DNA of 64,000 nucleotides, taken from Desulfuromonadales bacterium. Its GTDB lineage: Bacteria; Desulfobacterota; Desulfuromonadia; Desulfuromonadales; Syntrophotaleaceae. Made by a program: the position numbers and the translations under genes. Numbering within the stretch: position 1 is the stretch's first letter; every line of letters starts with the position of its first letter. The notes under the pieces were generated by a model. That model did not search any database. It saw only the letters and a list, made by a program, of their open reading frames with translations, and was not told the DNA's origin. Shown piece by piece: positions 4,456 to 54,767 of this stretch. The stretch covers positions 5,056-69,055 of the forward strand of contig JASKKK010000006.1 in the NCBI GenBank assembly GCA_030154185.1, in the 5' to 3' direction.

Positions 4456-4974
4456 TCACTTTTCTCTCTGGCGAAGAATTTTTTCGATATCTTCCAGAGC
4501 CTGCAGTTTATCCTGCAACTCGCGATTGTCGGTCTCCAGCTTCCGGGCCCGCTGCAGAACCTGATCGCGCTCTCCGACAAGCTCCAGTTGCTCTTTGAGC
4601 TGATCTTCCAGCAGGGATGTCAGGGAAAGCAATGTCGCCCCCCCTTTATCCTGTCGACGAAAATCGATCAGCAAATCGAGTGCCAGTTTGCGATCTACAG
4701 GTGGACGTCCGGGTTGGGAAGCCAGAGCCACAAGCTGAAAAAGAGCATTGTCGTCGGGCTTGCGATTGAAGTCCTTGCGCAACCTCACGATTTCCCTGTC
4801 GATCTTTGCAGGGCTCAAGGTACCGGCCTTGCGGTAATAATCCAGAACCGTTGCGGGTTCGATCCCCTCGCCCGGCAGCTGCGGCCAGGAGACCTTCGGA
4901 AAGCCAGCGCAGCCGGAGAGGAAAAGCCCCAGAAACAATCCAATTGCTATTCCAGCCTTGTGTCTTGGCATCAT
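4456..4974 (-). CDS. lipoprotein with coiled-coil C-terminus (positional analogue of YfhG/QseG)
   Basis: Lipobox LFLSGC. Sits between the kinase and regulator genes. 4-nt overlap with the kinase stop. C-terminus is E/L/Q-rich and helical. Confidence 0.6.
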   Translation of the reverse strand: MMPRHKAGIAIGLFLGLFLSGCAGFPKVSWPQLPGEGIEPATVLDYYRKAGTLSPAKIDREIVRLRKDFNRKPDDNALFQLVALASQPGRPPVDRKLALDLLIDFRRQDKGGATLLSLTSLLEDQLKEQLELVGERDQVLQRARKLETDNRELQDKLQALEDIEKILRQREK

Positions 4975-6416
4975 GTCTTTGCCTCCTGAGCCGAAAGCGG
5001 CAGTGTCACCCTGAAACAGGCACCCCCCAGCGAGCTCTCAAGAACCTCGATGCTGGCGCCATGATCACGTACGTATTCCTGCACGATGGACAAACCGATT
5101 CCTGTCCCCTGAACGGGTCCCACCAATGGAGCCGAACCCTGGTAAAAAGGTTTGAAAATCTCTTCCCGCTCGCTTTCCGGAATGCCCGGACCCGAATCGG
5201 ACACTTCAAGAAGAGCCTGGTGATCCTGTCGGCAAAGGGAAACACGAATAATGCCTCCCACAGGGGTATATTTGACGGCGTTGGAAAGCAGATTGTCCAC
5301 CACGTTGCGTAATCGCTCCCGGTCTCCGAAAAGTTGCAGCGGCTCCAATTCGAGTGTGAGATCGAGATTTTTTTTAAGCATGGCAGGCCTCTGCGTCGCG
5401 GCGACCCCCTCAATCAGACGGGAAAAATCGATACTGCCGCCGCGAAATGTGGAAATCTTGGCCTGCACTCGGCTGAAACCGAGGAGGTTATCGATAAGCT
5501 TATGCAGTTGCAATCCGTTCTTACGCAATATCCAGGCAATCTCCCGTTGCTGGTCGTTGAGTGGTCCGACCTCTTCCTCGACCAGTAATTCCGTACCTTC
5601 GCGGATGGATGCCAGGGGCGTTTTTAACTCATGAGAAACATGGGAGATAAACTTGCTTTTTTCCTTTTCCACTGCATTAAGGCGCTGCCGCAACCAGTCG
5701 AGACGCGTCCCCAGAAAACGTAGATCGTCCGGGCCGCCAACCGTGATGGGCGAGGTAAAATCCCCTTCGCCCAGACCGGTGATACCGCGGTTGATCTGCC
5801 GGATCGGATTGGTGATGCGCTGTGCAAAAAAGATGGCGAACAGAGCGGTTACCGGAACCAGCAGCACCGCCAGCCAAAGCAGTATCCTGCGCGCTCGGGT
5901 AGTCGAAGACCGCAGGGCGTCGACCTCGTGGACGATAAGCTCCTGACTTTCGTCATACAGACCCCGTGCCAGATTGTTGAGTTCTTCGAACCCCTCCAGA
6001 AAAGCTTCATTGTCGCCTGCATCGCGACCGTTGCTGCGCAAATCGGCATAGAGCTGTTTTTCCCCCTCGGCCAGACGCCGCAGACGCCGCAACTGATCCC
6101 GCTTCAGGGGCAGGTTGCCGAGATGTTCGACCGAAAGCGCAAACTCTTTATGCTTTTCTTCGATCCCTGCCAGCAATTCACCGGCCTGCAGCACCTGATA
6201 CTGACGAGCGCGGCGCTCCAGAGCCAGCAGTTGCTCGACCAGATTGCGGCTTTCCTGAATCACGTTGACGGACCGATAGACGGCCTGAGAGCCCCGTCGC
6301 GCCAAGCGATCCAGGAAAAACTCGGCATTGATCATGGCCAGGTTGAACGGTAGCGCCACCATGGCAAAACCGATCAGCACCAGGGCAAGAAACGATTTTG
6401 GACGAAATAGGTGCAT
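4971..6416 (-). CDS. HAMP-domain sensor histidine kinase (GlrK/QseE-like)
   Basis: Two TM segments flank a ~150-aa periplasmic region. HAMP domain, H-box SHELKTPLASI, N box DNLLSNAVKYTP, G boxes DSGPGIP and GTGIGLSIV. Confidence 0.85.
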   Translation of the reverse strand: MHLFRPKSFLALVLIGFAMVALPFNLAMINAEFFLDRLARRGSQAVYRSVNVIQESRNLVEQLLALERRARQYQVLQAGELLAGIEEKHKEFALSVEHLGNLPLKRDQLRRLRRLAEGEKQLYADLRSNGRDAGDNEAFLEGFEELNNLARGLYDESQELIVHEVDALRSSTTRARRILLWLAVLLVPVTALFAIFFAQRITNPIRQINRGITGLGEGDFTSPITVGGPDDLRFLGTRLDWLRQRLNAVEKEKSKFISHVSHELKTPLASIREGTELLVEEEVGPLNDQQREIAWILRKNGLQLHKLIDNLLGFSRVQAKISTFRGGSIDFSRLIEGVAATQRPAMLKKNLDLTLELEPLQLFGDRERLRNVVDNLLSNAVKYTPVGGIIRVSLCRQDHQALLEVSDSGPGIPESEREEIFKPFYQGSAPLVGPVQGTGIGLSIVQEYVRDHGASIEVLESSLGGACFRVTLPLSAQEAKT

Positions 6417-6447: not shown

Positions 6448-7779
6448 TCAAACCGGCAGCGGCCAGTCGGTCTGGTAACCTTCGGGATAGAAATTCTCCC
6501 GCGTGCGATTGAAATACCCGTACTGCAACCGGGGAATACGCCGCTTCAAACGGTCCAGCATCTCCACCATCCCGAGCCCCTCGTCTTCGATCCCCATGAC
6601 CCGGCAATACAGTTCGGGATCGATACTCAGGTTGCGCATCTGGATCAGATCGACGCCGGCTTCCTCGATCAGGTCACCCAGGGCCGACACTTCCTCCAGT
6701 CGATCGTTCAACCCCGGGAACACCAGGTAATTGATCATGGTGAACAGGCCATGCCTTTTGGCCCGCCGCAGCGATTCGCGAACCTGCTCCAGGGTATAAC
6801 CGCAGGGACGATGGTAGGCGTCATAAAAACGATCCTGTACCGAATTCATCGATACCCGAATGGAATCGATACCGGCCTGCGCCAGACGATCGACGGCATC
6901 GGGATCGGAGGCGTTGGAATTGAAATGGATCGTCCCCTTGTCCGTGCGACGCCGCATTTCCCGCACCGCGTCACAGATGGTATCGGCCTGCAGAATAGGG
7001 TCCCCCTCGCAGCCCTGCCCGAAGGATACGATGGCCTTTTCCGCCCGCTCCAGATGAGGCACGGCGATCTGGCATAGTTCCTCAACCTTCGGCACGAACG
7101 TAATGCGTTCCTGGCTGGAAGGACAGCATTCGGGAGCTTCCTGCAGGGAAATGCAGCCCAGACAGCGGGCATTGCAGACCGGCGAGGTCGGCAGCGGCGC
7201 CTCCCAGCGACGGAAGAACAGGTTCTTGGCGGCGAAACAGTGGTAGTCCAAGGCGCAGCGGGCCAACTGCTCGAGCAATCGGTTGTCCGGGTGGGCCCGC
7301 AACAGTTTCCTGACCAGAGGATCGAGCTTGCGATCGTCAAAATGATCCGGCTGCCACTGGGTGTTACGGTCGACGCGCACGGCGGCAGCGTAAAACCGCT
7401 CCTCCTCGACGCACCAGCCAACGGCGGTATAAGACCACAAAGGCAGTTGAATCTGTTTGTCGCCGTAAGCCGCAGCCGGCAACAGGGTTCGGGTATAGCC
7501 CGGCGTCAGAAAAGCGGAAACCGCCTGAGCCTTGCCGCCGCCGAAATGGCGCGGCAGTTTGCGCAAGGTGACCGTACGCTCGCCGCCATCGTCGAATCCG
7601 ATCGGCGGTGTATCGGGAATGGTGAAAAGACGACTCCCCGCCGGCAGGGGAATCAGTTCTTCAGGGCGGGGAGGTCTGATCCGAGCTCCGTTCATACCGA
7701 CCATCAGCAGATCGGGATGTTCAAAAACTTCACCGGAGGCGTCCGCCACTACGGCGAGAATGGTCTTTTTACGTTTCAT
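6448..7779 (-). CDS. radical SAM protein, function unknown
   Basis: CNARCLGC (CX3CX2C) cluster motif in the middle of the protein. Start taken at Met52 (MKRKKTILAVV) of ORF 6448..7932. Only 31 nt upstream of the kinase gene. Confidence 0.75.
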   Translation of the reverse strand: MKRKKTILAVVADASGEVFEHPDLLMVGMNGARIRPPRPEELIPLPAGSRLFTIPDTPPIGFDDGGERTVTLRKLPRHFGGGKAQAVSAFLTPGYTRTLLPAAAYGDKQIQLPLWSYTAVGWCVEEERFYAAAVRVDRNTQWQPDHFDDRKLDPLVRKLLRAHPDNRLLEQLARCALDYHCFAAKNLFFRRWEAPLPTSPVCNARCLGCISLQEAPECCPSSQERITFVPKVEELCQIAVPHLERAEKAIVSFGQGCEGDPILQADTICDAVREMRRRTDKGTIHFNSNASDPDAVDRLAQAGIDSIRVSMNSVQDRFYDAYHRPCGYTLEQVRESLRRAKRHGLFTMINYLVFPGLNDRLEEVSALGDLIEEAGVDLIQMRNLSIDPELYCRVMGIEDEGLGMVEMLDRLKRRIPRLQYGYFNRTRENFYPEGYQTDWPLPV

Positions 7780-7921
7780 GCAGTAAAAATCCTTTTTTTG
7801 TCGATGCGGTAACCACTTAGACCGGTAAGCATAACACAGGACCCCCTCCGGAGGGAATAGTTCCCATCGTCGCTGAATTTTACCCTTTCCTCCGCAATCA
7901 TCCTTCGCTATGCTGGCGGCC

Positions 7922-9619
7922 ATGCGCGTCATACTGACTACCCTTCACAGCAAATTCGTTCACACCAGCCTTGCCCTGCCGCTGCTGGCCGCTTACTGCC
8001 GGCATCCGGGCCGGACCCTGCTGATTCGCGAATACACCGTTCACGAACCGAAGGAAACAGTACTGGCCGCCCTGCTGGCAGAGCAACCCGACGTGGTGGC
8101 GTTTTCCGTGTATCTCTGGAATCGTGCCGCCACCCTGGAACTGGCCGACGCCCTGGCTGTCGCTCGCCCCGGTCTGCGTGTAATCCTGGGGGGCCCCGAA
8201 ATCTCTTTCGACGGGCCCGAGCTGTTCGAACGTCACCCCGCCATCGACGCCGTGGTTCACGGCGAAGGTGAAATTCCGTTGAAGGCGTTACTCGACTCCT
8301 GGCAGCAGGGAAATCAACCCCATGGCGTGGCACGTGTCAGCTGGCGAAACGATCAGGGCGTCATGACCGCCCCCGATGGTCCGCCGCTTCAAAACCTCGA
8401 CGACATCCCCTCGCCTTTTCCCCTCGGCCTGGTCGACCTGTCGCGCGGTCTGGTTTATCTGGAAACGAGCCGCGGCTGCCCCTATCGCTGTGCATTCTGC
8501 ATGAGCGCCCTCGACGCCAGCGTGCGATCCTATTCGATGCAGCGCATCCGGGCCGATCTGCTCTGGCTTATACGGCATGAGGTCCCCTGCATCAAGCTGG
8601 TGGATCGCACCTTCAACTACGACGCCGCCCGGGCCCGCGACATATTCCGATTCATCATGGAAAACAACCGCGTCAGCAAGTTCCATTTCGAGATTGGCGC
8701 GCATCTGCTGGACGACGCGACCCTTACACTGCTGAAGCAGGTGCCGCCCGAAATGTTTCAGTTTGAAATCGGGGTGCAGTCCACTCTGCCCAAAACCCTT
8801 GAAGCCATCCGCCGGGAAACCTCGCTGGAACAGCTCGAAACCAACGTCCAGCGCCTACGGGACACAGGGCGCATCCACCTGCATCTCGACCTGATCGCCG
8901 GCTTGCCGGGGCAGGGGCTCACATCGTTTCTACGATCGGTCGATCGGGTCATGGCCCTGCGCCCCCACCATCTGCAACTGGAGCCGGTTAAACTCCTGCC
9001 GGGATCCCCTTTGCGCCGCGATGCCGCCGCCTCGGGCCTGCGCTTCGATCCCCATCCCCCCTATACGGTTCTGACCACCCCCGACCTGACTTTCGAGGAA
9101 CTGGAACGCTTGCGCGGCATCAGCCGCCTGCTGGATTTGACATGGAATTCCGAACGCCTGCAGGAATTCCTTGAGCAGTTGACCGTTCCGTACGGAGGCC
9201 TGTCGGAGGCCCTGGGCGCCCTGGAACGGTTCTGGCGCCGCCACGGACTGTTTCGCCGGTTGCTGTCCCAGCGGAGCCTGTTCGAGGAGTGCTGGAATTT
9301 CCTCCGATGCGAGAGCCCCCAGGAATACCGCCAGATATTGCAGGAAGCCCTGGCACGCGACTTCGCCCGAATCGAACGCGTAGCTCCGGCCAAAGCCCCC
9401 GAGTTCCTGAATCTCGATTTGCAATCGGACGAGGTGCAACGCGTTCGGGAACGGGTGCGCCTCGAAACCGATCGCATCAAAGGGCAAGGCATCAAACTGC
9501 AACATCTCGCCTGTGTGTTCTTCCATATCCCCGGCAGGGAAAACCAGCGAACGGTTCTGTTGTTCGTGTACCTGACCCGTCCGGGAGCGACCATGCAGGT
9601 CAAACAGATCGCATTATGA
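7922..9619 (+). CDS. B12-binding-domain radical SAM protein (DUF4080-type C-terminus)
   Basis: N-terminal Rossmann-like cobalamin-binding region (MRVILTTLHSKFVHTSLALP..VVAFSVYLWN). Radical SAM motif ETSRGCPYRCAFC. The start could be 7910 or 7922. Confidence 0.8.
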   Translation: MRVILTTLHSKFVHTSLALPLLAAYCRHPGRTLLIREYTVHEPKETVLAALLAEQPDVVAFSVYLWNRAATLELADALAVARPGLRVILGGPEISFDGPELFERHPAIDAVVHGEGEIPLKALLDSWQQGNQPHGVARVSWRNDQGVMTAPDGPPLQNLDDIPSPFPLGLVDLSRGLVYLETSRGCPYRCAFCMSALDASVRSYSMQRIRADLLWLIRHEVPCIKLVDRTFNYDAARARDIFRFIMENNRVSKFHFEIGAHLLDDATLTLLKQVPPEMFQFEIGVQSTLPKTLEAIRRETSLEQLETNVQRLRDTGRIHLHLDLIAGLPGQGLTSFLRSVDRVMALRPHHLQLEPVKLLPGSPLRRDAAASGLRFDPHPPYTVLTTPDLTFEELERLRGISRLLDLTWNSERLQEFLEQLTVPYGGLSEALGALERFWRRHGLFRRLLSQRSLFEECWNFLRCESPQEYRQILQEALARDFARIERVAPAKAPEFLNLDLQSDEVQRVRERVRLETDRIKGQGIKLQHLACVFFHIPGRENQRTVLLFVYLTRPGATMQVKQIAL

Positions 9620-10024: not shown

Positions 10025-10798
10025 ATGAAAAGATGGAGCGTGTTGTTTCTCGCAATGTTCGTGTTGTGTGCGGGCCTGACTTCAACAGCTCAAGCCAAGA
10101 TCGAGGTCGAAGGCGATGTTTATGTGGGCATCTGGGACAAGTACATCTGGCGCGGATTCGACCAGAGCGGCAGCAAACCCACCATCCAGGGCGGCATCGA
10201 TTTGAGCACCCACGGATGGACCCTGAGCTACTGGGGCAACTGGCAGCTGAGTGAGGACAAGGAAGAAGGTTACGAATCGGGTGAAAGCAACGAAACCGAT
10301 ATCATCCTGACCTACAGCCATGACGTCACCGACTGGCTGAACGTTACCGTTGGCGATATCTGGTACGCCATCGACTTCGGTACCAAGGACGACCTCAATC
10401 GCGACGGTTCGGTCGATACCAACGAGGTCTTCGGCATTTTCAGCTTCGACACCCTGCTCTCCCCCAGCGTCAAGATCGCCTGGGACTGGGACAAGGCTGA
10501 TGAAGACGGCCTCTACTTCACCTTCGACATCGGCCACACCTTCGATTTGAGCCAGTGGGTACCCAAAACCGCCCTCAACCTGGCTGCCGAGCTTTCCTAC
10601 AACCTGCACAGCGATTACCTGGTAGGCGACTATGCCGGTTTCCACGATTACGAACTTTATGTCAGCCTCGACTACGCTCTGACCGATCAGCTGACTCTGA
10701 GCCCGACTTTCTGGTTCACCTCGCCGATCTGCAGCGCGGCCAAAGACACCATCGATACGGAAACCACCGGCGCCATCAACCTGACATTCGCGTTTTGA
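10025..10798 (+). CDS. outer-membrane beta-barrel protein, TorF/Gcw_chp-like putative porin (module A)
   Basis: SD ggagg at 10012. Signal peptide MKRWSVLFLAMFVLCAGLTSTAQA. Motif YIWRGFDQSGSKPTIQGGIDL. Alternating beta-strand pattern. C-terminal ..INLTFAF. Confidence 0.7.
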   Translation: MKRWSVLFLAMFVLCAGLTSTAQAKIEVEGDVYVGIWDKYIWRGFDQSGSKPTIQGGIDLSTHGWTLSYWGNWQLSEDKEEGYESGESNETDIILTYSHDVTDWLNVTVGDIWYAIDFGTKDDLNRDGSVDTNEVFGIFSFDTLLSPSVKIAWDWDKADEDGLYFTFDIGHTFDLSQWVPKTALNLAAELSYNLHSDYLVGDYAGFHDYELYVSLDYALTDQLTLSPTFWFTSPICSAAKDTIDTETTGAINLTFAF

Positions 10799-11014
10799 AC
10801 GTACAGGTTTGACAGTCTTCGGACGTACCAAAGCTACGGACATACAGTAGCATAAAGGAACTTTCCCAAGACGACCTTGTTATTGTTAACTTGTGCTACA
10901 GGCGGGGAGGCCTCCTCCCCGCCTCCACAGTTTGACCGGCCCCTTCGGTGCCGGCCAGGCAACAACCCAAGGCAACCCCAAAACTCCGCACACCGAAACG
11001 GCAGGAGGATCATC

Positions 11015-12124
11015 ATGAGAAAAGCACTTTCGGGAACCGCGCTTTTCGGCATCCTGGGCCTGGTCGCCATCGGCCTGGCCCTGGCACCGGGCTGCGGTAA
11101 AGCAAAAAAAGAAACATTGCGCATTACCTGCTGGGGAGGCTACGCCAAGCCGTATGTAGCCGACTTCCAGCAGCTGATCAAAGAAAAGCACAATATCGAC
11201 GTGGAAGTCCAAATCACCAACCCCACCGACCAGGACGAGTTTTTCATGGCGGTGAAAGACAATACGGCCGATCTCATATCGCCTCCCATCGAGTTGCCGA
11301 AGACTCCGCGATTCTATGCTTATTCGGCGGAAACCCCCTATCTGCAACCGGTCGACGTCGAAAACATCCCCAATCTCAAAAACATGATGCCGGTATTCCG
11401 CGACGATACAACTCCCATCTTCGCCGGAAAACGCTACGGCGTCCCCTACAATTGCGGACCTTACGGGCTGGCTTACAATGCCGACGTCATCGATGCAGCA
11501 CCGACCACGTGGAACATCCTGTGGGAGCCCCGATATGCCGGGAAGTACACCATAAACAACAACTTCCCCAAGGTTAACGTCTGGATCACCGCCCTGGCTC
11601 TCGGCTACGGGTATGACGATATTTTCGATATCGCACGTCTCGACAGGGAAAAGGTGCAGCGACAGCTCAACGTTCTGGCCAAAAATGCCAAAAGCCTGTG
11701 GGATGGAGCCGCCAACCCGGATGAATTCCCCGAACTGTCCCTGGCCACGACCTGGGGCTTTGCAGCGCAGCAGGCCAACCTGAAAGGCGGCAACTGGCTG
11801 CTGGCCAGTCCCAAGGAAGGCGGCACGGCATGGATCGATTGCTGGTACATCGGCGTCGGCGCCGAGGGTATAACCAAGACCCTGGCCGAAGAATGGATCA
11901 ACTTCATGCTCGATCCGGCCCGCCAGGCCGACGTGGTCAAGTCCCAGGGTGTTTCTCCGGTCATCGCCGACGTGGGGGACCTGCTCGATGCCAAGGACAA
12001 GGCCATGTTCCACGTAGGGGATGAAGCATACTTCAAGACCGTTGCATTATGGAGGGTCATGAGCGAGGAGACGGAAGAGGCATTCAACAACATGTGGGAG
12101 GAGGCCAAAACACACAGAGAGTAG
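11015..12124 (+). CDS. PotD/PotF-like periplasmic solute-binding lipoprotein, orphan (module A)
   Basis: SD aggagg at 11003. Signal ending ..LALAPGC. PotD-like blocks (W..LW.P.Y.G, PKEGGTAWIDCW, INFMLDP). No permease or ATPase adjacent. Confidence 0.8.
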   Translation: MRKALSGTALFGILGLVAIGLALAPGCGKAKKETLRITCWGGYAKPYVADFQQLIKEKHNIDVEVQITNPTDQDEFFMAVKDNTADLISPPIELPKTPRFYAYSAETPYLQPVDVENIPNLKNMMPVFRDDTTPIFAGKRYGVPYNCGPYGLAYNADVIDAAPTTWNILWEPRYAGKYTINNNFPKVNVWITALALGYGYDDIFDIARLDREKVQRQLNVLAKNAKSLWDGAANPDEFPELSLATTWGFAAQQANLKGGNWLLASPKEGGTAWIDCWYIGVGAEGITKTLAEEWINFMLDPARQADVVKSQGVSPVIADVGDLLDAKDKAMFHVGDEAYFKTVALWRVMSEETEEAFNNMWEEAKTHRE

Positions 12125-12232
12125 ATTCGGGCAACATCTCCAACAAACAATTCTTGTTCAAGAAATGACGCACAGGGCATCCCGAGAACAGCACACTCAC
12201 CCTGTGGTTCACCCGAGACATGGAGGTGTCAC

Positions 12233-14494
12233 ATGCAACTCAAGTCAAAACTGTTTTACGGCATAATTTTTGGCCTGGCTCTGGCTTTTACAGCCAGCCT
12301 GGCCGGAGCTGTCGCCATCCGCGACGTCAAACCGGGCGAGGACGTATTCGATTACGTGAGCCGGATCAACGGCCAGTTTGATCAAACCCTTTATCAGCAG
12401 GTGGTCGGTGCCGCCAACTCCTTCAAGGAAGGGGACGAGGCCATCGGCGTGGCGGCCGACAACGACGCCACCCGCGAGAACGCCCGCAAATTGCTGGCCA
12501 ACACCAAAATCAAGGATCTGATGGCCAAGCCCCTGTTTGTGGACGCCCAGTACGACCTCATCACCAATACCACCGACATGGCCCAGTACAACAAGGTCAG
12601 GGACTGGACCCTGGGCGAATTGAAGGATTTCCTTCTCACCAAGTCCGAGGCTCAGATCAAGGGTATCATGTACGGGCTGCACAGCGATATCATCGCCAAC
12701 GTGGTCAAAATGATGTCCAACGAGGAGCTGACCCGCATCGGTCAGACGGTTTTCAACCCTCTGCCCGGCTCCAAGATCGGCGCCAAGGGTTATCTGAGCG
12801 CCCGCATCCAGCCCAACTCGCCGACGGATAATGTCGACGACATCGTCTGGCAGGTTTTCGACGCCTACTCCTATGGCGTTGGCGACATCGTCGTCGGTAC
12901 CAACCCCGTCGACAGCGAAGCAGCCAATATCGAGAACATCGAACTGGCCCTGCGCGACGTCATGCAGACTTTCGGCGTCGACAAGTACAACCCCTGGTGC
13001 GTGCTCTCGCACATCGACGTACAGGCCGAGGTCGAAAAGAACAACCCCGGCTCCACCGCTATCTGGTTCCAGAGTCTGGCCGGGGTGGTCGACGCCAACA
13101 AGACCTTCGACCTGACGCTGGAAAAGATGATGAATTATGCCAGCATGCGCAACGGCAAATACGGTCTCTACCATGAAACCGGCCAGGGTGCCGACTTCAC
13201 CAACGGTCACGCCAAGGGCTTCGACATGGTCGTTCACGAATCCCGCAAGTACGGCTTCGCCCGCGCCCTCAAGCAGCAGGTGGCGGCCGCCCAGATCGAC
13301 GGTCAGGGTGCCTGGTGCCATGTCAACGACGTGGCCGGCTTCATCGGGCCCGAGGTCTTCAAGACTCGGGAACAGCTGGTCCGCTGCTGCCTGGAAGACA
13401 TCGCCATGGGCAAGCTGCACGGCCTGATCATCGGCCTCGACATCTGTTCGACCCTGCACATGCCCGTCACCCTGGACGATCTCGACTGGTGCCAGGATCA
13501 GATCGCTCCGGCCAACCCCGGATACCTGATGGCCTTGCCGACCAAAAACGACCCGATGCTCAGCTACCTGACCACCGCCTTCCAGGACCATGTCCGGCTG
13601 CGCGAGAAGTTCGGCTACAAAGTCAACGACGACATGTGGAATTTCTTTAAGAAAATCGAAGTCATCGACGACAATGGCAAGCCGACGGAACACTTCGGCG
13701 ACCCGATCTGGGTCTATTACCAGTACCGCCTGGCCAAGGGTGACACCCGCAGCATGAAGGAAATCTACGCCGAAGGCCAACAGAAGGTCGAGGAAGTCCA
13801 GGCTCGCGGTGTGCCCCTGGCCATCGGCTACGGCGAAAACATATGGGATCTGGAGCCGAAGACCGACAAGCAGATCCACGACCTGTATAACGACGCCAAG
13901 ATCAGCCTGTGGGCCGAATTCACCCCGGAATTCATCGCCTCCATCCCCAACGCCGTAACCGTGCAGACCAAATCGGCCGACCGGGAAGACTATGTGGCGC
14001 ACCCGAGCACCGGCGAGGAATTCAATGATGCTTCCGTGGCCACCCTGGAGAAACTGCGGGCCAGCTGGGGCGGCAAGGCCCCGGACGTGCAGGTCATCAT
14101 TTCCGACGGTCTGAACGCCAAGGCCCTCATGGACGAAGATCACCTCATGCCCTTCATGGAAGAGCTGAAGGATCAGCTTGCCAAAGCCGGCTGGACCCTG
14201 GCCAAAGAAAACATCGTGGTCACCAGCGGCCGGGTGCGCGCCGGTTACCGGGCCGGCGAAACCCTGTTCACCGATCCCGACAGCACCCCGAAGGCCATCG
14301 TCCACATCATCGGCGAACGCCCGGGCAGCGGCCATCATGCCTATTCGGTCTACCTGACCCGTCTGGCTCCCGTCACCTGGTCCGCCGAGGGTGCCGACCA
14401 TGATGTGACCAAGGTCATCTCCGGCATTTCCAACACCGGTCTCGACCCGCGCAAAGCGGCACGTCAGGCCGTAAGACTGCTGCAGGAAATGTAA
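12233..14494 (+). CDS. fused EutB-EutC ethanolamine-ammonia-lyase-like enzyme with N-terminal signal peptide/anchor (module A)
   Basis: SD ggaggtg. N-terminus MQLKSKLFYGIIFGLALAFTASLAGAVAI. EutB blocks SARIQPN, GVGDIVVGTNPV, LYHETGQGA, VAGFIGPE, LEDIAMGKLHG. EutC blocks PDVQVIISDGLNAKA, GRVRAG, IIGERPGSGHH. Confidence 0.85.
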   Translation: MQLKSKLFYGIIFGLALAFTASLAGAVAIRDVKPGEDVFDYVSRINGQFDQTLYQQVVGAANSFKEGDEAIGVAADNDATRENARKLLANTKIKDLMAKPLFVDAQYDLITNTTDMAQYNKVRDWTLGELKDFLLTKSEAQIKGIMYGLHSDIIANVVKMMSNEELTRIGQTVFNPLPGSKIGAKGYLSARIQPNSPTDNVDDIVWQVFDAYSYGVGDIVVGTNPVDSEAANIENIELALRDVMQTFGVDKYNPWCVLSHIDVQAEVEKNNPGSTAIWFQSLAGVVDANKTFDLTLEKMMNYASMRNGKYGLYHETGQGADFTNGHAKGFDMVVHESRKYGFARALKQQVAAAQIDGQGAWCHVNDVAGFIGPEVFKTREQLVRCCLEDIAMGKLHGLIIGLDICSTLHMPVTLDDLDWCQDQIAPANPGYLMALPTKNDPMLSYLTTAFQDHVRLREKFGYKVNDDMWNFFKKIEVIDDNGKPTEHFGDPIWVYYQYRLAKGDTRSMKEIYAEGQQKVEEVQARGVPLAIGYGENIWDLEPKTDKQIHDLYNDAKISLWAEFTPEFIASIPNAVTVQTKSADREDYVAHPSTGEEFNDASVATLEKLRASWGGKAPDVQVIISDGLNAKALMDEDHLMPFMEELKDQLAKAGWTLAKENIVVTSGRVRAGYRAGETLFTDPDSTPKAIVHIIGERPGSGHHAYSVYLTRLAPVTWSAEGADHDVTKVISGISNTGLDPRKAARQAVRLLQEM

Positions 14495-14502
14495 TCTCGA
14501 CC

Positions 14503-14528
14503 GGGTCGCCGGGCTCTCCCGGCGACCC
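14503..14528 (+). other. perfect 11-bp GC hairpin immediately after the EutBC stop
   Basis: gggtcgccggg-ctct-cccggcgaccc. No U-tract follows. Confidence 0.6.
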
Positions 14529-14665
14529 GACAGCAACATGTGTCACCAACAGGAGGCGTAACGGTCACAGCATCGCCGTTGCGCCTTTCTTTTCCCCATG
14601 CCTATCTGCTTTCCCTATATCTTTACCCCCGCCATACGGAACCGGGGTCAGAAAGAAACGGTCGC

Positions 14666-15508
14666 ATGAACCATAATCTTCCCCCAGCACCACCACCGGA
14701 GACCGGTCCGCCGCCCCCACAGGATAAACGCCCCGGCCTGATCCGCGACGTCTTTCATAAAACACATCTGTGGGCCCATGCTCTGGTTATCAGTCGCTTC
14801 TACCGCTTCGGCGAAACCGGCAATCTCATGTATACCGTCGGCAAGAGCATCCTCGAGGGCGCGGTTCTGTACACCATGTTCAGCATGGCCCAGACCGAAT
14901 ACAAGGTCGCCGCCGTGCTGGGAGTCATGACCAAATATATCTATCCGGGCATTACCTTCGTCAGCAGCGTAAAAGTCTCTTCCTTTGTCGATCATCTGGA
15001 AAGATTTCCCGACAAAACCCTGCAACTCCAGAAACTCGTCGGAGGCGTCATTCTGGTCGGCATCGGCCAGGCTCTCGGCGCCCTGATGCTGCTGTTTTGC
15101 TATCCACCGTTTTTCAGGGTCTGCTTCGACAGCATGGGAATCAGCCGGTATCTGCTCGTTGGACTCTATCTCCTGCATCATATTTTCGACGGTTCGGCAC
15201 AGGTTGCCGAGGGAAGAATCTGGTTCAAACTCATCGAAATCAAATTGCGCCATGGCAATCTGAGACACATTTCGGAGAATTTCTGGGGCATCCATGCCAT
15301 GAGTCAGAACGTCCAGCTCATACTCGGTCTGATTCTGCTCTGGGGAACCACTCTGATCACGGGATTGTTCATAAACCGTCTCGATGCCGGCACCATGTGG
15401 ACGATCGTCCTGACGGGAACCCTTTTGACCGCCACCTCAAAATTCTGTCTGCCTATCGCATGGCACCTGCGCCTGCGCCATGAAACGAAGATGGACTCAC
15501 CCTCCTGA
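14666..15508 (+). CDS. polytopic membrane protein, unrecognised family (module A)
   Basis: Met43 of ORF 14540..15508. Pro-rich N-terminus followed by several hydrophobic helices. Paralogue at 41720..42565. Confidence 0.6.
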   Translation: MNHNLPPAPPPETGPPPPQDKRPGLIRDVFHKTHLWAHALVISRFYRFGETGNLMYTVGKSILEGAVLYTMFSMAQTEYKVAAVLGVMTKYIYPGITFVSSVKVSSFVDHLERFPDKTLQLQKLVGGVILVGIGQALGALMLLFCYPPFFRVCFDSMGISRYLLVGLYLLHHIFDGSAQVAEGRIWFKLIEIKLRHGNLRHISENFWGIHAMSQNVQLILGLILLWGTTLITGLFINRLDAGTMWTIVLTGTLLTATSKFCLPIAWHLRLRHETKMDSPS

Positions 15509-15614
15509 GCCATGGTGAAATCCCCCCATTTGGGGGATGGTTTTATATTCAGGTATCTGCTAGAAATAAGTCCAGGTAGCAGGAAATATAAAGAATCTGC
15601 TATTCACACAATTT

Positions 15615-15785
15615 GACAAGGGACGGGTGCTTAAGAAGCCTAACAGGGAAGACGGTGTAAATCCGTCGCGGTCCCGCCGCTGTAACCGGTGACGATGGCC
15701 ATATGATGCCACTTTTCGTACTCACGAAAGGGAAGGCGTGGCCGGCAGAATGACCCGGAAGCCAGAAGACCTGCCTGCCCCGCAT
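15615..15785 (+). promoter_or_regulatory. cobalamin riboswitch (leader of the cob operon)
   Basis: Conserved elements read directly: gggtgc..aacagggaagacggtgtaaatccgtcgcggtcccgccgctgtaacc..gccac..gggaaggc..B12 box agccagaagacctgcc. Confidence 0.85.
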
Positions 15786-15867
15786 ACGTGCTGTTGTGAC
15801 CTTCGAGGATTGAGGACCGACATTTCGTGCACGTGTGCAGATCGTTGGCTGGCGGATAAAAAACGGT

Positions 15868-15905
15868 ATCCCCGGAGCTTATGGCTCCGGGGATTTTTCT
15901 TTTTG
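15868..15905 (+). terminator. intrinsic terminator (riboswitch expression platform)
   Basis: atccccggagc-ttat-ggctccgggga followed by tttttcttttt, 12 nt before the first cob gene start. Confidence 0.7.
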
Positions 15906-23887: not shown

Positions 23888-23978
23888 AAAAATTTTCCGT
23901 TTTTATGATCCGTAAGTCCATAGGTCCTATGGGACCCATGAGGCCAAAGCATCGACAAACTTCGAAAGGTTGACAGCC

Positions 23979-24509
23979 ATGAGCCACAAACCACGCATCC
24001 TCATCTTTACCGGCGACGGCAAAGGCAAAACCACCGCCGCCATGGGTATGGTCCTGCGAGCCAGCAGCCACGGCATGCGGATCAAGGTCGTGCAGTTTCT
24101 TAAATCCGATACCGGCAGTGGCGAGATAACGGCTCTGCAAAAACTTCCTGGGGTTGAATTCGTGCGCCGCGGGCTGGGGTTCGTGCCGAGACGCAGGGAC
24201 GATCCGCAATTCGCCGAACACCGTCGCGTTGCCGAAGAAGGGCTGGTCCTGGCCCGGGAAGCGATCCGGTCCGAAAAATTCGACCTGGTGATAATGGACG
24301 AAATCTGCGGTGCCATCGCCGCCGGGTTGCTTGAAGAACAGGAGGTTGTCGACCTATTGAGCCAGGCGCCTGCCGGACTGCGCCTGGTTCTGACCGGCCG
24401 CCATGCGACAAACACCTTGATCGAGCTGGCCGACACCGTCACCGAAATGCGCTGCATCAAGCACGGTCTCCAGCAGGGTCGAGCGGCCCAGAAAGGCGTG
24501 GAGTTCTGA
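23979..24509 (+). CDS. cobO: cob(I)yrinic acid a,c-diamide adenosyltransferase
   Basis: FTGDGKGKTTAA P-loop and DEI..A motif. ATG at 23979 preferred over TTG at 23970. Confidence 0.85.
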   Translation: MSHKPRILIFTGDGKGKTTAAMGMVLRASSHGMRIKVVQFLKSDTGSGEITALQKLPGVEFVRRGLGFVPRRRDDPQFAEHRRVAEEGLVLAREAIRSEKFDLVIMDEICGAIAAGLLEEQEVVDLLSQAPAGLRLVLTGRHATNTLIELADTVTEMRCIKHGLQQGRAAQKGVEF

Positions 24510-36594: not shown

Positions 36595-37119
36595 ACCCCA
36601 CCCTCGTTTCTGACAAACCAGTATTTTCCCAACAGTTGAGGCATCACCCCCCTGCTTTATCCCCCCAATTGGTGATCGAAATTCCCCTCCGTTGGGGGAT
36701 ACTCCCGACTTCCCATCATGAGGTATTTTAGTTCACGGATGGTAAGACAGTTGTTCTTCGGAGTTCGCTATAAAGGCGTTCTGAAACGTCCGTTCCAGAA
36801 ATTCCGCAGAGCAATCTCCTAGGTAGCCGCCGTATCCTTTTTCTCAGGATCTGGGACGACATGCCATGAGCCGGTTGACAACGAACATGCTTAAAAAGTT
36901 CAAAGCAATAGCCGACGAAAAATTCCGCTGTCGCATTTTTGCATGGCTTTGCCATCTTCCTTTCTTTGCCTTTCCGCACCCGCCTGCTATGACGGCAACT
37001 TCGTCCCGGAGCGCATTTCTCGCCCGGGCCTTTGCATGCCTTATCTCGGAACGGTTGTTCTCTGGATGGACCGGAAGAATATCCGTTCCTTTTTCATCCT
37101 TTTATGGAGGTACATCATT

Positions 37120-37893
37120 ATGAAGAAGTGGAGTGTTTTACTGGTCTCCGTCTTTCTGCTGGCCGCCGGCTTCGTCAGCTCGGCCCAGGCGAAGATCGAA
37201 GTCGAGGGCGATGTCTACGTCGGCCTCTGGGACAAGTACATCTGGCGCGGATTCGACCAGAGCGGCAGCAAGCCCACCATCCAGGGCGGCATCGATTTGA
37301 GCACCAACGGGTGGACCCTGAGCTACTGGGGCAACTGGCAGCTTAGCGAGGACAAGGAAGAAGGCTACGAATCGGGCGAAAGCAACGAAACCGATATCAT
37401 CCTGACCTACAGCCATGACGTCACCGACTGGCTGAACGTTACCGTTGGCGATATCTGGTACGCCATCGACTTCGGCACCAAGGACGGCCTCAACCGCGAC
37501 GGTTCGGTCGACACCAACGAGGTCTTCGGCATTTTCAGCTTCGACACCCTGCTCTCCCCCAGCGTCAAGATCGCATGGGACTGGGACAAAGCTGATGAAG
37601 ACGGCCTCTACTTTACCTTCGACATCGGCCACACCTTCGACCTGAGCCAGTGGGTACCCAAAACCGCTCTCAACCTGGGTGCCGAGCTTTCCTACAACCT
37701 GCACAGTGATTACCTGGTGGGCGACTATGCCGGTTTCCACGATTACGAACTTTATGTCAGCCTCGACTACGCTCTGACCGATCAGCTGACCCTGAGCCCG
37801 ACTTTCTGGTTCACCTCGCCGATCTGCAGCGCGGCCAAAGACACCATCGATACGGAAACCACCGGTGCCATCAACCTGACCTTCGCCTTTTAA
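37120..37893 (+). CDS. outer-membrane beta-barrel protein, TorF-like putative porin (module B)
   Basis: Mature part differs from 10025..10798 at only 4 residues by my count (I/L, H/N, D/G, A/G). The signal peptide is diverged. Confidence 0.7.
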   Translation: MKKWSVLLVSVFLLAAGFVSSAQAKIEVEGDVYVGLWDKYIWRGFDQSGSKPTIQGGIDLSTNGWTLSYWGNWQLSEDKEEGYESGESNETDIILTYSHDVTDWLNVTVGDIWYAIDFGTKDGLNRDGSVDTNEVFGIFSFDTLLSPSVKIAWDWDKADEDGLYFTFDIGHTFDLSQWVPKTALNLGAELSYNLHSDYLVGDYAGFHDYELYVSLDYALTDQLTLSPTFWFTSPICSAAKDTIDTETTGAINLTFAF

Positions 37894-37933
37894 TCGATAG
37901 GCAAGTTCAGGCCTGAGAAACACCAGAACTCTG

Positions 37934-37975
37934 ACGGGGCGAGAGGCTGTTCAAACACCCCTCGCCCCGTTTTCC
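37934..37975 (+). terminator. intrinsic terminator/attenuator after porin B
   Basis: acggggcgag..loop..ctcgccccgt followed by tttt. Confidence 0.6.
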
Positions 37976-38068
37976 GCGAAAAGCCGGATGGCCAGCGGAC
38001 AGGTTAACGAAAATCGCAAATCACTGTTCACCGCTTTCCTGAAACCGACACTTGTCAGGAGGAACGTC

Positions 38069-39187: not shown

Positions 39188-39300
39188 AACCTGCGGATGT
39201 CCCGTCATCGGGAGCATCCCGTATTTTTCACCCATGCTCCGCCTGCGGAGATAGCCGCAGAGCGGATGGCATCCCCATCTAACGAGACGGAGGTAAACGC

Positions 39301-41568: not shown

Positions 41569-41587
41569 AACCTCCTTCCCTGTGATA

Positions 41588-41622
41588 GACCCGGGGGCCT
41601 TTCGGCCCCGGGTCACCTTTTT
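41588..41622 (+). terminator. GC hairpin plus T-tract after EutBC B (attenuator/terminator)
   Basis: gacccgggggcc-tttc-ggccccgggtc followed by acctttttcc. Confidence 0.5.
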
Positions 41623-41719
41623 CCCCGCCTTGCCAGTTCTCCGGCCCCCTGCCGTTGGTCGGATTCCTGGACACTTCGAACAGTTAACAGCCCGGGCCGC
41701 TTTTAGCGGCCCGGACTTT

Positions 41720-45422: not shown

Positions 45423-45481
45423 ATCCCGTTCCGTCCGTCGGCATCCGGTCGACGGACGATATCGCTGGAGGCAACACTGTC

Positions 45482-47394: not shown

Positions 47395-47425
47395 GCCGCC
47401 CATATCAAGACCAAGGAAAGTTTCG

Positions 47426-49180: not shown

Positions 49181-49206
49181 GCTTTCCCCCGTAAAGAGGC
49201 TTTCTG

Positions 49207-50319: not shown

Positions 50320-50408
50320 AAAAGTCATGAACAGATGCACGGCGAAAGAAGCTTGTCCCGAACAGGCGTGAAAATTTAACGTTCTGCAATGATTGCGAGG
50401 AATGAACC

Positions 50409-51209: not shown

Positions 51210-51216
51210 AGGTACC

Positions 51217-52239: not shown

Positions 52240-52479
52240 AGATTCGGGGGCCGAAAAGGGTGCCAGAAACCCTGAAAACTTAAAAAACCACACTGTTTGC
52301 AAACCCCCACCCCCTTGTTTTTCGTCGTGTTTTCAAACACTTGGAGTGCAATAAAAATAATTAACATTAACCGAAAAGCGTATACCTCATCCGATATTGA
52401 ACTTTCGTTCTATTTTGTGCTATAAATTATCCAATCTGAAAAGCTCTTTGACATCAACATCAGCGATTGACGCAAAACT

Positions 52480-52580: not shown

Positions 52581-52629
52581 TTTACCCGGAACCATTCCAG
52601 AAAGTGAAAGATTGGGAGGAAGTACAAGA

Positions 52630-54700: not shown

Positions 54701-54767
54701 TTTTCTCTATAACTGCTTGAATAAACTTTACAACTCGACAAAATCGCGTTAATTTAATCTTGTATAC

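Follow-up and report, generated by a model that had tools for sequence, protein, structure and literature searches.

A fused EutB-EutC lyase with a predicted export signal and its neighbouring genes: a proposed periplasmic ethanolamine ammonia-lyase system in a Desulfuromonadales bacterium

In this study, we propose that four co-oriented genes of a Desulfuromonadales bacterium constitute the envelope part of a periplasmic ammonia-lyase system acting on ethanolamine or another vicinal amino alcohol, a reading to which we assign a probability of roughly 0.6. The genes are located in a stretch of 64,000 nucleotides of contig JASKKK010000006.1 (GCA_030154185.1), referred to here as the window, which is approximately 91% identical to Syntrophotalea (Pelobacter) carbinolica. 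They encode a TorF/Gcw_chp-like porin, a substrate-binding protein (SBP), a fused EutB-EutC lyase with a putative Sec-type signal peptide and a polytopic membrane protein (mem). This set, module 1, duplicates part of a larger system located at 37120-52239 in the same window.

Two related gene clusters in the window

A preliminary description of this DNA had recognised a four-gene module at 10025-15508. All four ORFs are indeed present on the + strand with these boundaries, and each of the sequence motifs quoted at that time is found in the translations. The four genes are thus real, but the term four-gene module understates the locus, since they are a partial duplicate of the larger system. 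The features of module 1 are the following:

10025-10798, + strand: outer-membrane porin-like protein, TorF/Gcw_chp-like, with signal peptide MKRWSVLFLAMFVLCAGLTSTAQA preceding K and the C-terminus ...INLTFAF
11015-12124, + strand: orphan SBP of the PotD/PotF superfamily (SBP_bac_6), probably a lipoprotein (LALAPGC)
12233-14494, + strand: eutBC1, fused EutB-EutC of 753 aa, assigned by Pfam, NCBIfam, PDB and predicted model
12233-12310, + strand: predicted Sec-type signal peptide of eutBC1, residues 1-26, with cleavage after A24-G25-A26
14666-15508, + strand: mem1, 280 aa, about six TM helices, no known family; likely start at ATG 14666, in an ORF open from 14540
15520-15538, + strand: terminator-like hairpin closing the module-1 transcription unit
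15608-15792, + strand: cobalamin riboswitch, governing the downstream cob genes and not module 1; its terminator lies at 15868-15894

The porin ATG is preceded by GGAGG, and a GGAGGTG ribosome-binding site 5 nt 5' of the eutBC1 ATG makes the latter a strong start. The preliminary description did not mention that the four genes recur as a paralogous second copy at about 37120-42565, that a complete cobalamin pathway lies between copy 1 and copy 2, or that BtuCDF-like, MoxR and VWA genes are located 3' of copy 2. CobA, which acts in AdoCbl synthesis and adenosylation, is encoded at 23970-24509. The second copy and the genes that follow it are:

37120-37893, + strand: por2, porin paralogue (94.6% amino acid and 95.3% nucleotide identity)
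38069-39187, + strand: sbp2, SBP paralogue (75% amino acid identity)
39301-41568, + strand: eutBC2, lyase paralogue (69% amino acid identity), with Sec-like signal MFKKGKLAAGITGALVMTFLASLAGA preceding VTI
41717-42565, + strand: mem2, mem1 paralogue (63% amino acid identity)
42460-45422, + strand: BtuCDF-like type II ABC transporter, consisting of an ATPase (42460-43338), a Peripla_BP_2 protein (43250-44383) and a FecCD permease (44334-45422)
45482-46534 and 46432-47394, + strand: MoxR AAA_3 ATPase and DUF58 protein, respectively, within 45482-52239
47366-49180, + strand: 604-aa bitopic protein within the MoxR/DUF58/VWA set
49207-50319 and 51097-52239, + strand: BatA/B-like TM-VWA proteins
52474-52594, + strand: Moco riboswitch
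52519-54360, + strand: aldehyde:ferredoxin oxidoreductase (AOR), a likely acetaldehyde sink

The co-encoded MoxR AAA_3, DUF58 and TM-VWA proteins (45482-52239) belong to module 2 and not to the four-gene finding. By the positive-inside rule their VWA domains are predicted to be periplasmic, matching the periplasmic location shown for a BatA-like VWA domain (PMC5700661). The earlier observation that shell proteins, EutA, EutE/D, a permease and a regulator are missing holds for everything annotated in the window, and a rough tblastn search of the window with approximate shell sequences as queries gave no match to BMC shell genes.

Identity and predicted export of the fused lyase

The 753-residue product of eutBC1 joins EutB and EutC in a single polypeptide, as previously read by eye, with matches of 2e-146 over residues 54-486 and 3e-35 over residues 552-753, respectively. 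The EutB domain scores 488.5 bits with PF06751 and 651.7 bits with NF011649 (cut-off 554). The EutC domain reaches 122.3 bits with PF05985 (cut-off 25.8) and 95.5 bits with the NCBIfam equivalog, which is under the cut-off of 230 and marks this part as divergent. Comparison with PDB entries 2qez and 3abo yields 1e-57 to 1e-61, the sequences of the solved enzymes being only about 30% identical, and the predicted model has a TM-score of 0.83 to chain A and of 0.71-0.73 to chain B of 3abo. In the alignment, E. coli alpha R160, Q162, N193, E287 and D362, which we take from E. coli structural work to be the substrate-binding and catalytic residues, correspond to R191, Q193, N224, E315 and D403 of eutBC1, and F329, M392 and Y404 correspond to F370, M433 and Y445. 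The aligned EutB residues are invariant or nearly so in 19 diverse members, the former five being fully invariant, so that the residues needed for AdoCbl catalysis are retained. The classic traits of an ethanolamine ammonia-lyase (EAL), i.e., two subunits, location in cytoplasm or microcompartment and an EutA partner, are replaced here by a fusion with a predicted signal peptide and by a window that holds no eutA or shell gene.

The N-terminus of the lyase has the form of a Sec signal (MQLKSK, a 19-residue hydrophobic core and AGA followed by V), in line with the preliminary description. All of 120 homologues with 64-100% identity have a K/R-rich n-region, a hydrophobic h-region and an AxA site; the first two vary in sequence while keeping their character, and conservation is seen at the AxA site and at the start of the mature protein (VTIxDVKPGEDVF). 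Taken together, these features predict a genuine signal peptide, which the AF2 model depicts as a lone low-confidence helix at residues 2-23. Both lyases of the window (MQLKSK... and MFKKGK...) fall outside the Tat motif and are classed as Sec-like because they lack RR and have a strongly hydrophobic h-region.

An export signal is recognised on the lyase in all 80 related genome loci, being Sec-like in 33 and Tat-like in 47, with a lipobox in 17 of the latter. Relatives from Bacteroidota carry a Tat motif plus lipobox Cys at the signal position, and distant relatives have classical twin-arginine signals at the same position, e.g., GISRRDLLLIAGTAATTLASYNHIARA followed by A in Sinorhizobium. Close inspection of 43 Tat-like signals revealed a strict RRxFL-type motif in 33 and the variant RKxF[LM] in 10, against a Tat-type motif frequency of 6% in background ORFs. 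The median hydrophobicity of the h-region is 2.80 for Sec and 1.96 for Tat signals (p = 9e-12), a difference in the expected direction, and matches to Pfam TAT_signal are sub-threshold only (E = 0.02-0.09). Members of the clade come from Thermodesulfobacteriota, Rhizobiaceae, Bacteroidota, Planctomycetota and further groups, and in species-representative genomes at least 491 stretches match. This distribution of Sec, Tat and Tat-lipoprotein signals over relatives of many phyla makes it most likely that the whole fused-lyase clade works outside the cytoplasm, a location for which we know of no earlier description in this enzyme class. The lyase of the window is very probably located in the envelope; that it is active in the periplasm appears probable, at a lower level of confidence.

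Partner proteins, proposed mechanism and alternative readings

The porin matches Gcw_chp (PF09694) with 37.5 bits (cut-off 24), which agrees with its first assignment as TorF-like, and scores 47.1 bits, just short of the cut-off of 47.15, with the NCBIfam TorF family TIGR02001. Its signal peptide and C-terminal Phe are evident in the sequence, no solved homologue was found, and in other loci the fused lyase has neighbours homologous to the porin that carry the YxWRG motif. The PotD/PotF fold noted for the SBP is confirmed by SBP_bac_6 (167.7 bits, E = 4e-49); the nearest solved structures are polyamine SBPs (PDB, 4e-15), and the PotD/PotF equivalogs score 51-57 bits against cut-offs of 582-725. 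The SBP has no cognate permease or ATPase, as stated before, with no BPD_transp-type permease in the window or beside family members. In three of three distant look-ups this family is encoded one or two genes from a fused EutBC, again with no PotABC-type permease there. For mem1, in which no family had been recognised, Pfam and NCBIfam likewise give no match. It has only 121 homologues among 5.8e9 proteins, and its all-helical AF2 model (pLDDT 93) has no Foldseek match in the PDB below E = 1e-3.

Viewed from the lyase side, the neighbours are conserved in other genomes, since the Sec-type loci contain the porin in 19/33, the SBP in 17/33 and mem in 23/33 cases. The Tat-type loci contain the porin in 2/47 and the SBP in 1/47 cases, and the four-gene set is therefore lineage-restricted. 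In a comparison of 30 Sec-type with 43 Tat-type loci, mem is present in 23 (and missing from 7) of the former and in none of the latter, a correlation confounded by phylogeny. Examination from the SBP side and from the mem side shows the lyase as a neighbour at almost all sites; mem is directly 3' of the lyase in six of seven places, and ABC_tran, Peripla_BP_2 and FecCD genes directly follow mem in all seven. Where mem and the BtuCDF-like transporter occur, the MoxR/DUF58/VWA set is usually present too, and it is conserved beside Sec-type eutBC in 13-19 loci. Genes for aldehyde handling recur as well: an AOR gene adjoins the fused eutBC in seven loci, one of which also has an Fe-ADH, and a Zn-ADH is directly upstream in eight Rhizobiaceae loci.

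In the proposed mechanism, the TorF/Gcw_chp-type porin would let small amines across the outer membrane, and a cleavable Sec-type signal (in many relatives, a Tat or Tat-lipoprotein signal) would direct the export of the fused lyase. Outside the cytoplasm, this enzyme would convert the amino alcohol to acetaldehyde and ammonium, and the acetaldehyde would diffuse inward to AOR or alcohol dehydrogenases. The SBP may bind substrate or pass it on, or it may serve in assembly as a chaperone of the MxaJ kind; we tentatively regard this orphan lipoprotein as a dedicated partner of the lyase rather than a part of an ABC importer. Mem would form a group with the ABC transporter of BtuCDF type and the MoxR/DUF58/VWA proteins of the ancestral cluster; their joint task may be to provide the corrinoid cofactor to lyases that are Sec-exported unfolded, to insert it or to recycle it. 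Tat-type lyases would be exported cofactor-loaded and would dispense with these partners. The individual roles suggested here for SBP, mem, ABC and MoxR/VWA proteins are each possible rather than probable. The deamination in the envelope suggested in the preliminary description is supported, nothing that it had named as contrary evidence was encountered, and a lyase with the predicted localisation may offer an alternative to microcompartments.

A wider reading, which we put forward with considerable reserve, is that an AdoCbl radical enzyme works in the periplasm, or at the cell surface of Bacteroidota, in hundreds of species. In bearers of Sec signals it would be paired with a dedicated machine composed of the new 6-TM family, the BtuCDF-like ABC transporter and a MoxR/DUF58/VWA complex, with corrinoid delivery, insertion or recycling across the inner membrane as its possible task. 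Counting against the periplasmic reading as a whole, Sec export would necessitate cofactor loading outside the cytoplasm, which as far as we are aware is unprecedented for AdoCbl; we know of no route that takes AdoCbl to the periplasm, and the periplasm has no ATP for an EutA-like reactivation. The clustering with genes for B12 uptake and synthesis could also be mere co-regulation of a B12 consumer.

Three other readings have to be weighed. A cytoplasmic fused lyase, with the SBP and the multi-TM protein as an ethanolamine/choline uptake system and a hydrophobic N-terminus that is irrelevant or an uncleaved anchor, is how the orthologues Pcar_0490-0493 and Pcar_0466-0469 were annotated (Aklujkar et al., 2012; PMC3543383), and agrees with the cytoplasmic location of every characterised EAL known to us and with the cytoplasmic synthesis and adenosylation (CobA) of AdoCbl. 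We nonetheless consider it highly improbable, given the conserved AxA site and the unambiguous Tat signals and lipoboxes in relatives. Moreover, the K-rich n-region implies an N-in, C-out orientation, which would place the enzyme outside even with an uncleaved signal. As to uptake, the SBP occurs without mem in two loci and mem without the SBP in six, so they are not an obligate pair, and mem goes with an ABC system of FecCD type that has a binding protein of its own.

Alternatively, the protein might be an exported, non-catalytic corrinoid binder derived from EAL that captures or stores B12 in the periplasm in concert with BtuB and the transporter of BtuCDF type. Other bacteria are known to have B12-binding proteins at the surface or in the periplasm, no reactivase is present, and the lyase gene is tightly clustered with those for this transporter, for a TonB receptor under riboswitch control and for cobalamin biosynthesis. 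However, a plain binder would need none of the EutB substrate-binding and catalytic residues that are invariant across phyla, AOR and ADH genes are recurrent neighbours, and the stand-alone Tat-type genes of Rhizobiaceae and Bacteroidota have no nearby B12 transport genes or cobalamin riboswitch. Strains of S. carbinolica are also reported to grow on ethanolamine, with only these two eutBC genes described (PMC3543383), and we deem such a binder improbable. Somewhat less remote, though still unlikely, is an exported active lyase whose substrate is not free ethanolamine, either because it uses another vicinal amino alcohol or because the paralogues differ, with the SBP defining the substrate. 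The lyase and SBP pairs have diverged (69 and 75% identity) whereas the porins are 95% identical, the SBP is of a polyamine-binding superfamily, and 2-amino-1-propanol is a further substrate of E. coli EAL (PDB 5ysr title); yet the ethanolamine-contacting active-site residues are identical in both paralogue types, and the AOR and ADH neighbours point to a C2 aldehyde.

If the preferred reading of an exported lyase clade is correct, B12 radical chemistry can run in the envelope, topology instead of a protein shell can manage toxic acetaldehyde, and cells need either a periplasmic route for adenosylated corrinoid or Tat export of the holo-enzyme. The dedicated machine, if true, would be the first pathway described for the handling of extracytoplasmic AdoCbl, and would stand in for the EutA reactivase by ATP-coupled action across the membrane. 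The Sec/Tat dichotomy and the matching presence or absence of accessory genes provide a directly testable handle on cofactor trafficking, as well as candidate functions for the orphan mem family and for one branch of MoxR/VWA (Bat-like) systems, which are poorly understood. For these organisms, metabolic models in which ethanolamine is taken up before it is deaminated would have to be corrected.

Comparison with known systems

The window lyase shares with EutBC of E. coli and Salmonella (PDB 3ABO) the EutB TIM-barrel and EutC domains, the substrate-binding and catalytic residues and the predicted fold, but is a single polypeptide with an N-terminal putative export signal, and the window lacks the EutA reactivase, BMC shell, EutE/D, permease and EutR. 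The characterised AdoCbl-dependent eliminases we know of are all cytoplasmic or enclosed in microcompartments and rely on cytoplasmic adenosylation and ATP-driven reactivases. B12 enzymes outside the cytoplasm have a precedent in the Tat-exported corrinoid reductive dehalogenases (RdhA/PceA), which reach the outer face of the cytoplasmic membrane with their cofactor; these are not AdoCbl radical enzymes and differ by an unrelated fold, Fe-S clusters and the membrane anchor RdhB.

The mxa system (MxaFI, MxaJ, MxaRSACKL) likewise comprises a Sec-exported periplasmic enzyme with a cofactor made in the cytoplasm, an orphan binding-protein-like partner (MxaJ), and a MoxR AAA+ ATPase, DUF58 and TM-VWA proteins encoded alongside. 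Its methanol dehydrogenase requires the chaperone MxaJ for insertion of PQQ and the MoxR/VWA set for insertion of Ca (PMC12276312). The two systems differ in cofactor (PQQ/Ca vs. corrinoid) and binding protein (SBP_bac_3-like vs. PotD-like), their enzymes have no homology, and a functional link in the window system is suggested by gene neighbourhood.

The eutBC1 and eutBC2 clusters of Pelobacter (Syntrophotalea) carbinolicus DSM 2380 (Aklujkar et al., 2012; PMC3543383) are orthologous to those of the window, with a lyase identity of about 91%, the same four genes duplicated, cobalamin genes between the copies, and a corrinoid-type ABC transporter, VWA proteins, an ATPase, AOR and BtuB downstream; no eutA was reported for that genome. 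In the 2012 paper the lyase is taken for an enzyme like any other, and the SBP and multi-TM protein for an uptake system; a signal peptide on the lyase, Tat-type relatives and the link between mem and the ABC transporter are not mentioned (PMC3543383). The preliminary description was not aware of an account of such an arrangement; the gene cluster and the fusion had already been published, though the export reading is absent there. New in our analysis are the predicted export signals in 80 of 80 loci, their Sec/Tat split, the invariance of the catalytic residues together with frequent AOR or alcohol dehydrogenase neighbours, the putatively dedicated SBP, the association of mem with Sec-type lyases and with the BtuCDF-like transporter, and the origin of module 1 as a partial duplicate.

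Module 1 and its fuller second copy

The preliminary description had placed four co-oriented genes at 10025-15508, and this was borne out in every detail by four ORFs on the plus strand. Module 1 and the elements that follow it are organized as listed here.

10025-10798, plus strand: gene 1, porin; ATG preceded by GGAGG; matches to the Gcw_chp and TorF-family profiles
11015-12124, plus strand: gene 2, binding protein (SBP); SBP_bac_6/SBP_bac_8 match at 4e-49; lipobox-like LALAPGC
12233-14494, plus strand: gene 3, eutBC1, fused EutB-EutC lyase of 753 aa; EutB and EutC profile matches
14540-15508, plus strand: gene 4, mem1, membrane protein; ORF from 14540, probable start ATG at 14666
15520-15538: terminator-like hairpin directly after gene 4
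15608-15792: cobalamin riboswitch with its own terminator (15868-15894), preceding a cobA/cysG-like gene

The translated porin carries a Sec signal (…TSTAQA before K), the YIWRGFDQS motif and a C-terminus reading …LTFAF. Its proposed Gcw_chp-like character agrees with a Pfam Gcw_chp score of 37.5 bits (cut-off 24), and it reaches 47.1 bits with the NCBIfam TorF family (cut-off 47.15). The profile match of gene 2 confirms the binding-protein fold; the protein is distant from PotD, PotF and YdcS (51-57 bits against NCBIfam equivalog cut-offs of 582-725), and polyamine binding proteins are its nearest solved structures (4e-15). Gene 3, with a ribosome-binding site (GGAGGTG) 5 nt upstream of its start, is indeed a single EutB-then-EutC polypeptide, matching EutB over residues 54-486 (2e-146) and EutC over residues 552-753 (3e-35). 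Gene 4 had been placed outside recognized families, and Pfam and NCBIfam searches returned no match for it.

Between the eutBC1 stop and the mem1 start lies a GC-rich hairpin (14501-14527) with an 11-bp stem (GGGTCGCCGGG-CTCT-CCCGGCGACCC) and no T-run downstream, which might act in mRNA processing or stability and so set the lyase:mem expression ratio. The riboswitch at 15608-15792 belongs to the downstream cob genes and not to module 1. Upstream, genes for a radical SAM protein (6448-7932, minus strand) and a B12-binding radical SAM/DUF4080 protein (7910-9619, plus strand) are divergent, and a HAMP histidine kinase is encoded at 4971-6416 on the minus strand. Stop-free antisense ORFs opposite eutBC1 (12245-14539, minus strand, 764 aa) and eutBC2 (39205-41616, minus strand, 803 aa) exceed the real genes in length and have equivalents at other loci. 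They were rejected as genes, since they are stop-free frames opposite eutBC and the tblastn coordinates support eutBC; codon usage almost certainly accounts for them.

Module 1 is a partial duplicate of a fuller arrangement, module 2, which spans about 36943-52239.

37120-37893: por2, 94.6% amino acid identity to copy 1
38069-39187: sbp2, 75% amino acid identity to copy 1
39301-41568: eutBC2, 69% amino acid identity to copy 1
41717-42565: mem2, 63% amino acid identity to copy 1
52474-52594: Moco/Tuco riboswitch, preceding an aldehyde:ferredoxin oxidoreductase (AOR) gene
54760-54933: cobalamin riboswitch, preceding a TonB-dependent receptor gene

Next in copy 2 come the genes of a BtuCDF-like ABC transporter (ATPase, Peripla_BP_2 binding protein, FecCD permease), and after them those for a MoxR ATPase (AAA_3), a DUF58 protein, a bitopic protein of 604 aa and two TM-VWA proteins. 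The AOR and, after the cobalamin riboswitch, the TonB-dependent receptor and TonB are encoded farther downstream. The stretch between copies 1 and 2 encodes the entire anaerobic pathway to cobalamin, with CobA/BtuR as its adenosyltransferase. The porin genes are 95.3% identical in DNA (10088-10796 vs 37183-37891) and the SBP, lyase and membrane-protein genes merely 69-77%; judged by these identities, the porin gene alone looks like a case of gene conversion or recent replacement. A comparable second copy occurs in MAG AUK168 (loci L013 and L017). Among named organisms, Syntrophotalea (Pelobacter) carbinolica DSM 2380 is the nearest relative; its lyase is 91% identical.

Export signals of the fused lyase

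The N-terminal export signal first ascribed to the lyase recurs in its relatives, and we consider it well supported, at a probability of roughly 85%, that this clade is exported. At least 491 of the 600 pattern matches listed encode relatives. In each of the best 120 homologues, which are 64-100% identical and, if complete, 749-774 aa long, a short K/R-rich start precedes a hydrophobic stretch of 15-20 residues that drifts freely in sequence, and a small-x-small site (AGA, SSA, AQA, GGA) abuts a strongly conserved V-T-I-x-D-V-K-P-G-E-D-V-F. Read from the alignment, this is the pattern of a cleaved signal peptide and not of a folded domain.

All 80 loci retrieved from species-representative genomes encode an export signal, 33 of them Sec-like and 47 twin-arginine. 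Examples of the latter are …GISRRDLLLIAGTAATTLASYNHIARA before A in Sinorhizobium fredii, …MSRRRFLSVMGAAGVTLAGYAFVANA before A in a deltaproteobacterial relative and MISRRYFLG… in Pirellulaceae, while the Bacteroidota lyases combine a Tat motif with a subsequent lipobox (e.g., INRREFLNSIGIMSTSLLLFNGC or ISRKEFLAQMGILGTSVVVFNSC). Among 43 Tat-like signals examined closely, 33 are of the strict RRxFL type and 10 of the RKxF[LM] variant; 6% of background ORFs carry a Tat motif. The median Kyte-Doolittle maximum of the h-region is 2.80 in the Sec class vs 1.96 in the Tat class (p = 9e-12), a difference in line with that known between Sec and Tat signals. Pfam TAT_signal gave nothing above threshold on ten Tat-type relatives (two sub-threshold matches), so the Tat assignment rests on motif, position and hydrophobicity. 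In a neighbor-joining tree, a Tat clade (Rhizobiaceae and some Thermodesulfobacteriota) is nested in the Sec-type radiation and the Bacteroidota Tat-lipoproteins form a branch apart, a placement indicating that the predicted signal type has been exchanged more than once with export retained.

A microcompartment-targeting peptide was rejected as an explanation of the lyase N-terminus, given the AxA site, the relatives with Tat or lipobox signals and the absence of shell genes (tblastn with approximate BMC shell queries found none in the window). Likewise, the EutB-EutC fusion was rejected as an export adaptation, because fusions without a signal exist (P0247 at 49% identity, P0264 and P0266 at 38%, and canonical-type fusions at ~33%); by these comparisons the fusion is not specific to export.

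Many of the Bacteroidota Tat-lipoproteins (L032, L042, L043, L050, L054, L065-L068, L071, L072, L076, L078) have an acidic or polar residue after the lipobox Cys (…NGCDF, …SGCDF, …QACDF). In Bacteroidota, a residue of this kind can target a lipoprotein to the outside of the cell, so these lyases might be exposed there and not be periplasmic.

Catalytic residues and partner genes

A purely corrinoid-binding, non-catalytic role of the lyase homologue is unlikely. The EutB part scores above its NCBIfam subfamily cut-off (651.7 vs 554); for the divergent EutC part, the values are 95.5 vs 230. In alignment, R160, Q162, N193, E287 and D362 of E. coli EutB (3abo_A) correspond to R191, Q193, N224, E315 and D403, and F329, M392 and Y404 to F370, M433 and Y445. 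The expectation that catalytic residues are retained thus holds, all eight positions being (nearly) invariant in a 19-member alignment spanning 64-100% identity. The AF2 model (mean pLDDT 76.6, residues 2-23 forming a lone low-confidence helix) superposes on 3abo with TM scores of 0.83 for chain A and 0.71-0.73 for chain B. Moreover, genes for aldehyde-handling enzymes recur as neighbors: AOR adjoins fused eutBC at seven loci (L009, L012, L018, L023, L024, L092, L093), L092 also has an Fe-ADH, and a Zn-dependent alcohol dehydrogenase (ADH) lies immediately upstream of eutBC at eight Rhizobiaceae loci. Together, these neighbors point to acetaldehyde. It is the conserved residues, EutB score, fold match and AOR/ADH neighbors that argue against a mere corrinoid binder.

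More distant homologues vary. The Tat-plus-lipobox protein P0251 (779 aa, 42% identity) has ARLRPN for ARIQPN at catalytic positions and lacks the GTNPV motif; it may descend from the exported clade and have lost catalysis. Five eukaryotic-looking fusions (P0243, P0245, P0249, P0252, P0253), 41-50% identical to the exported clade, contain low-complexity N/D/E runs; at the N-terminus of P0243 (1110 aa) there is a C2-domain-like extension of ~390 aa. Eukaryotic fused ethanolamine ammonia-lyases may have their nearest relatives in the exported bacterial clade.

The neighbors had been expected to be conserved with the fused lyase, which holds for many Sec-type loci but not for Tat-type loci, where porin and SBP are nearly absent and mem is absent.

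Partner genes at fused eutBC loci by signal class of the lyase
Sec-type, n = 33: porin 19, SBP 17, mem 23
Tat-type, n = 47: porin 2, SBP 1, mem 0

The SBP family is compact, with 437 proteins at E ≤ 1e-30. For three distant members whose surroundings were inspected (59-64% identity, one of them from Schekmanbacteria), a fused EutBC is encoded one or two genes away and no PotABC-type permease nearby, in agreement with the SBP lacking a cognate transporter; YxWRG-motif porin-like proteins flank the lyase at these loci and elsewhere.

The mem family numbers just 121 proteins out of 5.8 billion, every one of them labelled hypothetical. Its AF2 model (pLDDT 93, pTM 0.87) is all-helical with ~six TM helices, and Foldseek found nothing in the PDB under E = 1e-3; likeness to MFS transporters is unconvincing, with top TM scores of 0.44-0.47 to MFS halves. 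Seen from mem, the lyase is directly upstream in 6/7 cases and ABC_tran, Peripla_BP_2 and FecCD directly downstream in 7/7. Seen from the lyase, 23 of the 30 Sec-type loci that could be assessed have mem and seven lack it, and none of 43 Tat-type loci has it (Fisher p ≈ 1e-12, computed with 22/7 before L012 was corrected; phylogenetically confounded). L082 (8001-11700) retains mem with ABC_tran, Peripla_BP_2 and FecCD in the absence of porin and lyase, which ties mem to the ABC transporter and not to the SBP; the related L090, which shares the Rrf2 and Aminotran_5 genes upstream, keeps porin and lyase. The usual order in Thermodesulfobacteriota and one betaproteobacterial MAG is [SBP][porin]-EutBC-mem-BtuD-BtuF-BtuC-MoxR-DUF58-X-VWA(-VWA). 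Eight Tat-type loci had no cobalamin riboswitch near eutBC. A histidine-kinase 'family' shared by 11 loci can be explained by clustering on generic HisKA/HATPase domains.

A putative envelope route and known systems

Full-text searches on exported ethanolamine ammonia-lyase and on the Pcar loci found just the 2012 genome paper (PMC3543383), in which Aklujkar et al. describe the same cluster as a 43-gene cluster of P. carbinolicus, with an 'unusual fusion', duplicated flanking genes and no eutA, and read the SBP and multi-TM protein as an uptake system. Enzyme family, fusion and gene list are thus already known, but that paper does not mention a lyase signal peptide. As far as we found, no description exists of the lyase export signals with their cross-phylum distribution, of the dedicated SBP or of the link that the orphan mem has with both Sec-type lyases and a BtuCDF-like transporter.

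Beyond the observed composition, signals and conservation, we infer a route in which the porin would let amines in, the exported lyase would yield acetaldehyde and ammonium in the envelope, and acetaldehyde would diffuse inward to AOR or ADH. If true, neither an ethanolamine permease nor a microcompartment would be needed.

We know of no route that brings AdoCbl into the periplasm, and ATP for reactivation is absent outside the cytoplasm. The Sec/Tat dichotomy suggests a solution of this cofactor problem: Tat-type enzymes could be exported folded with AdoCbl loaded, and Sec-type enzymes would arrive unfolded and require a periplasmic loading or repair system. It is possible, though doubtful, that mem is a partner of the corrinoid ABC system, perhaps an exporter. 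Co-location with the B12 genes could also be mere co-regulation.

For such a loading system of the Sec-type lyase, periplasmic methanol dehydrogenase offers the best analogy. In that system, PQQ is inserted by MxaJ, an orphan chaperone that resembles a binding protein, and Ca by a group of MoxR/VWA proteins (MxaR, MxaS, MxaC and MxaL, with MxaA and MxaK; PMC12276312). The SBP might tentatively be assigned either substrate capture or an MxaJ-like chaperone role. The MoxR and DUF58 proteins of copy 2 are predicted to be soluble, and both VWA proteins in the window have a TM-TM-VWA-TM layout with a periplasmic VWA domain by the positive-inside rule, the same orientation as was experimentally demonstrated for the BatA-like protein BB0173 (PMC5700661).
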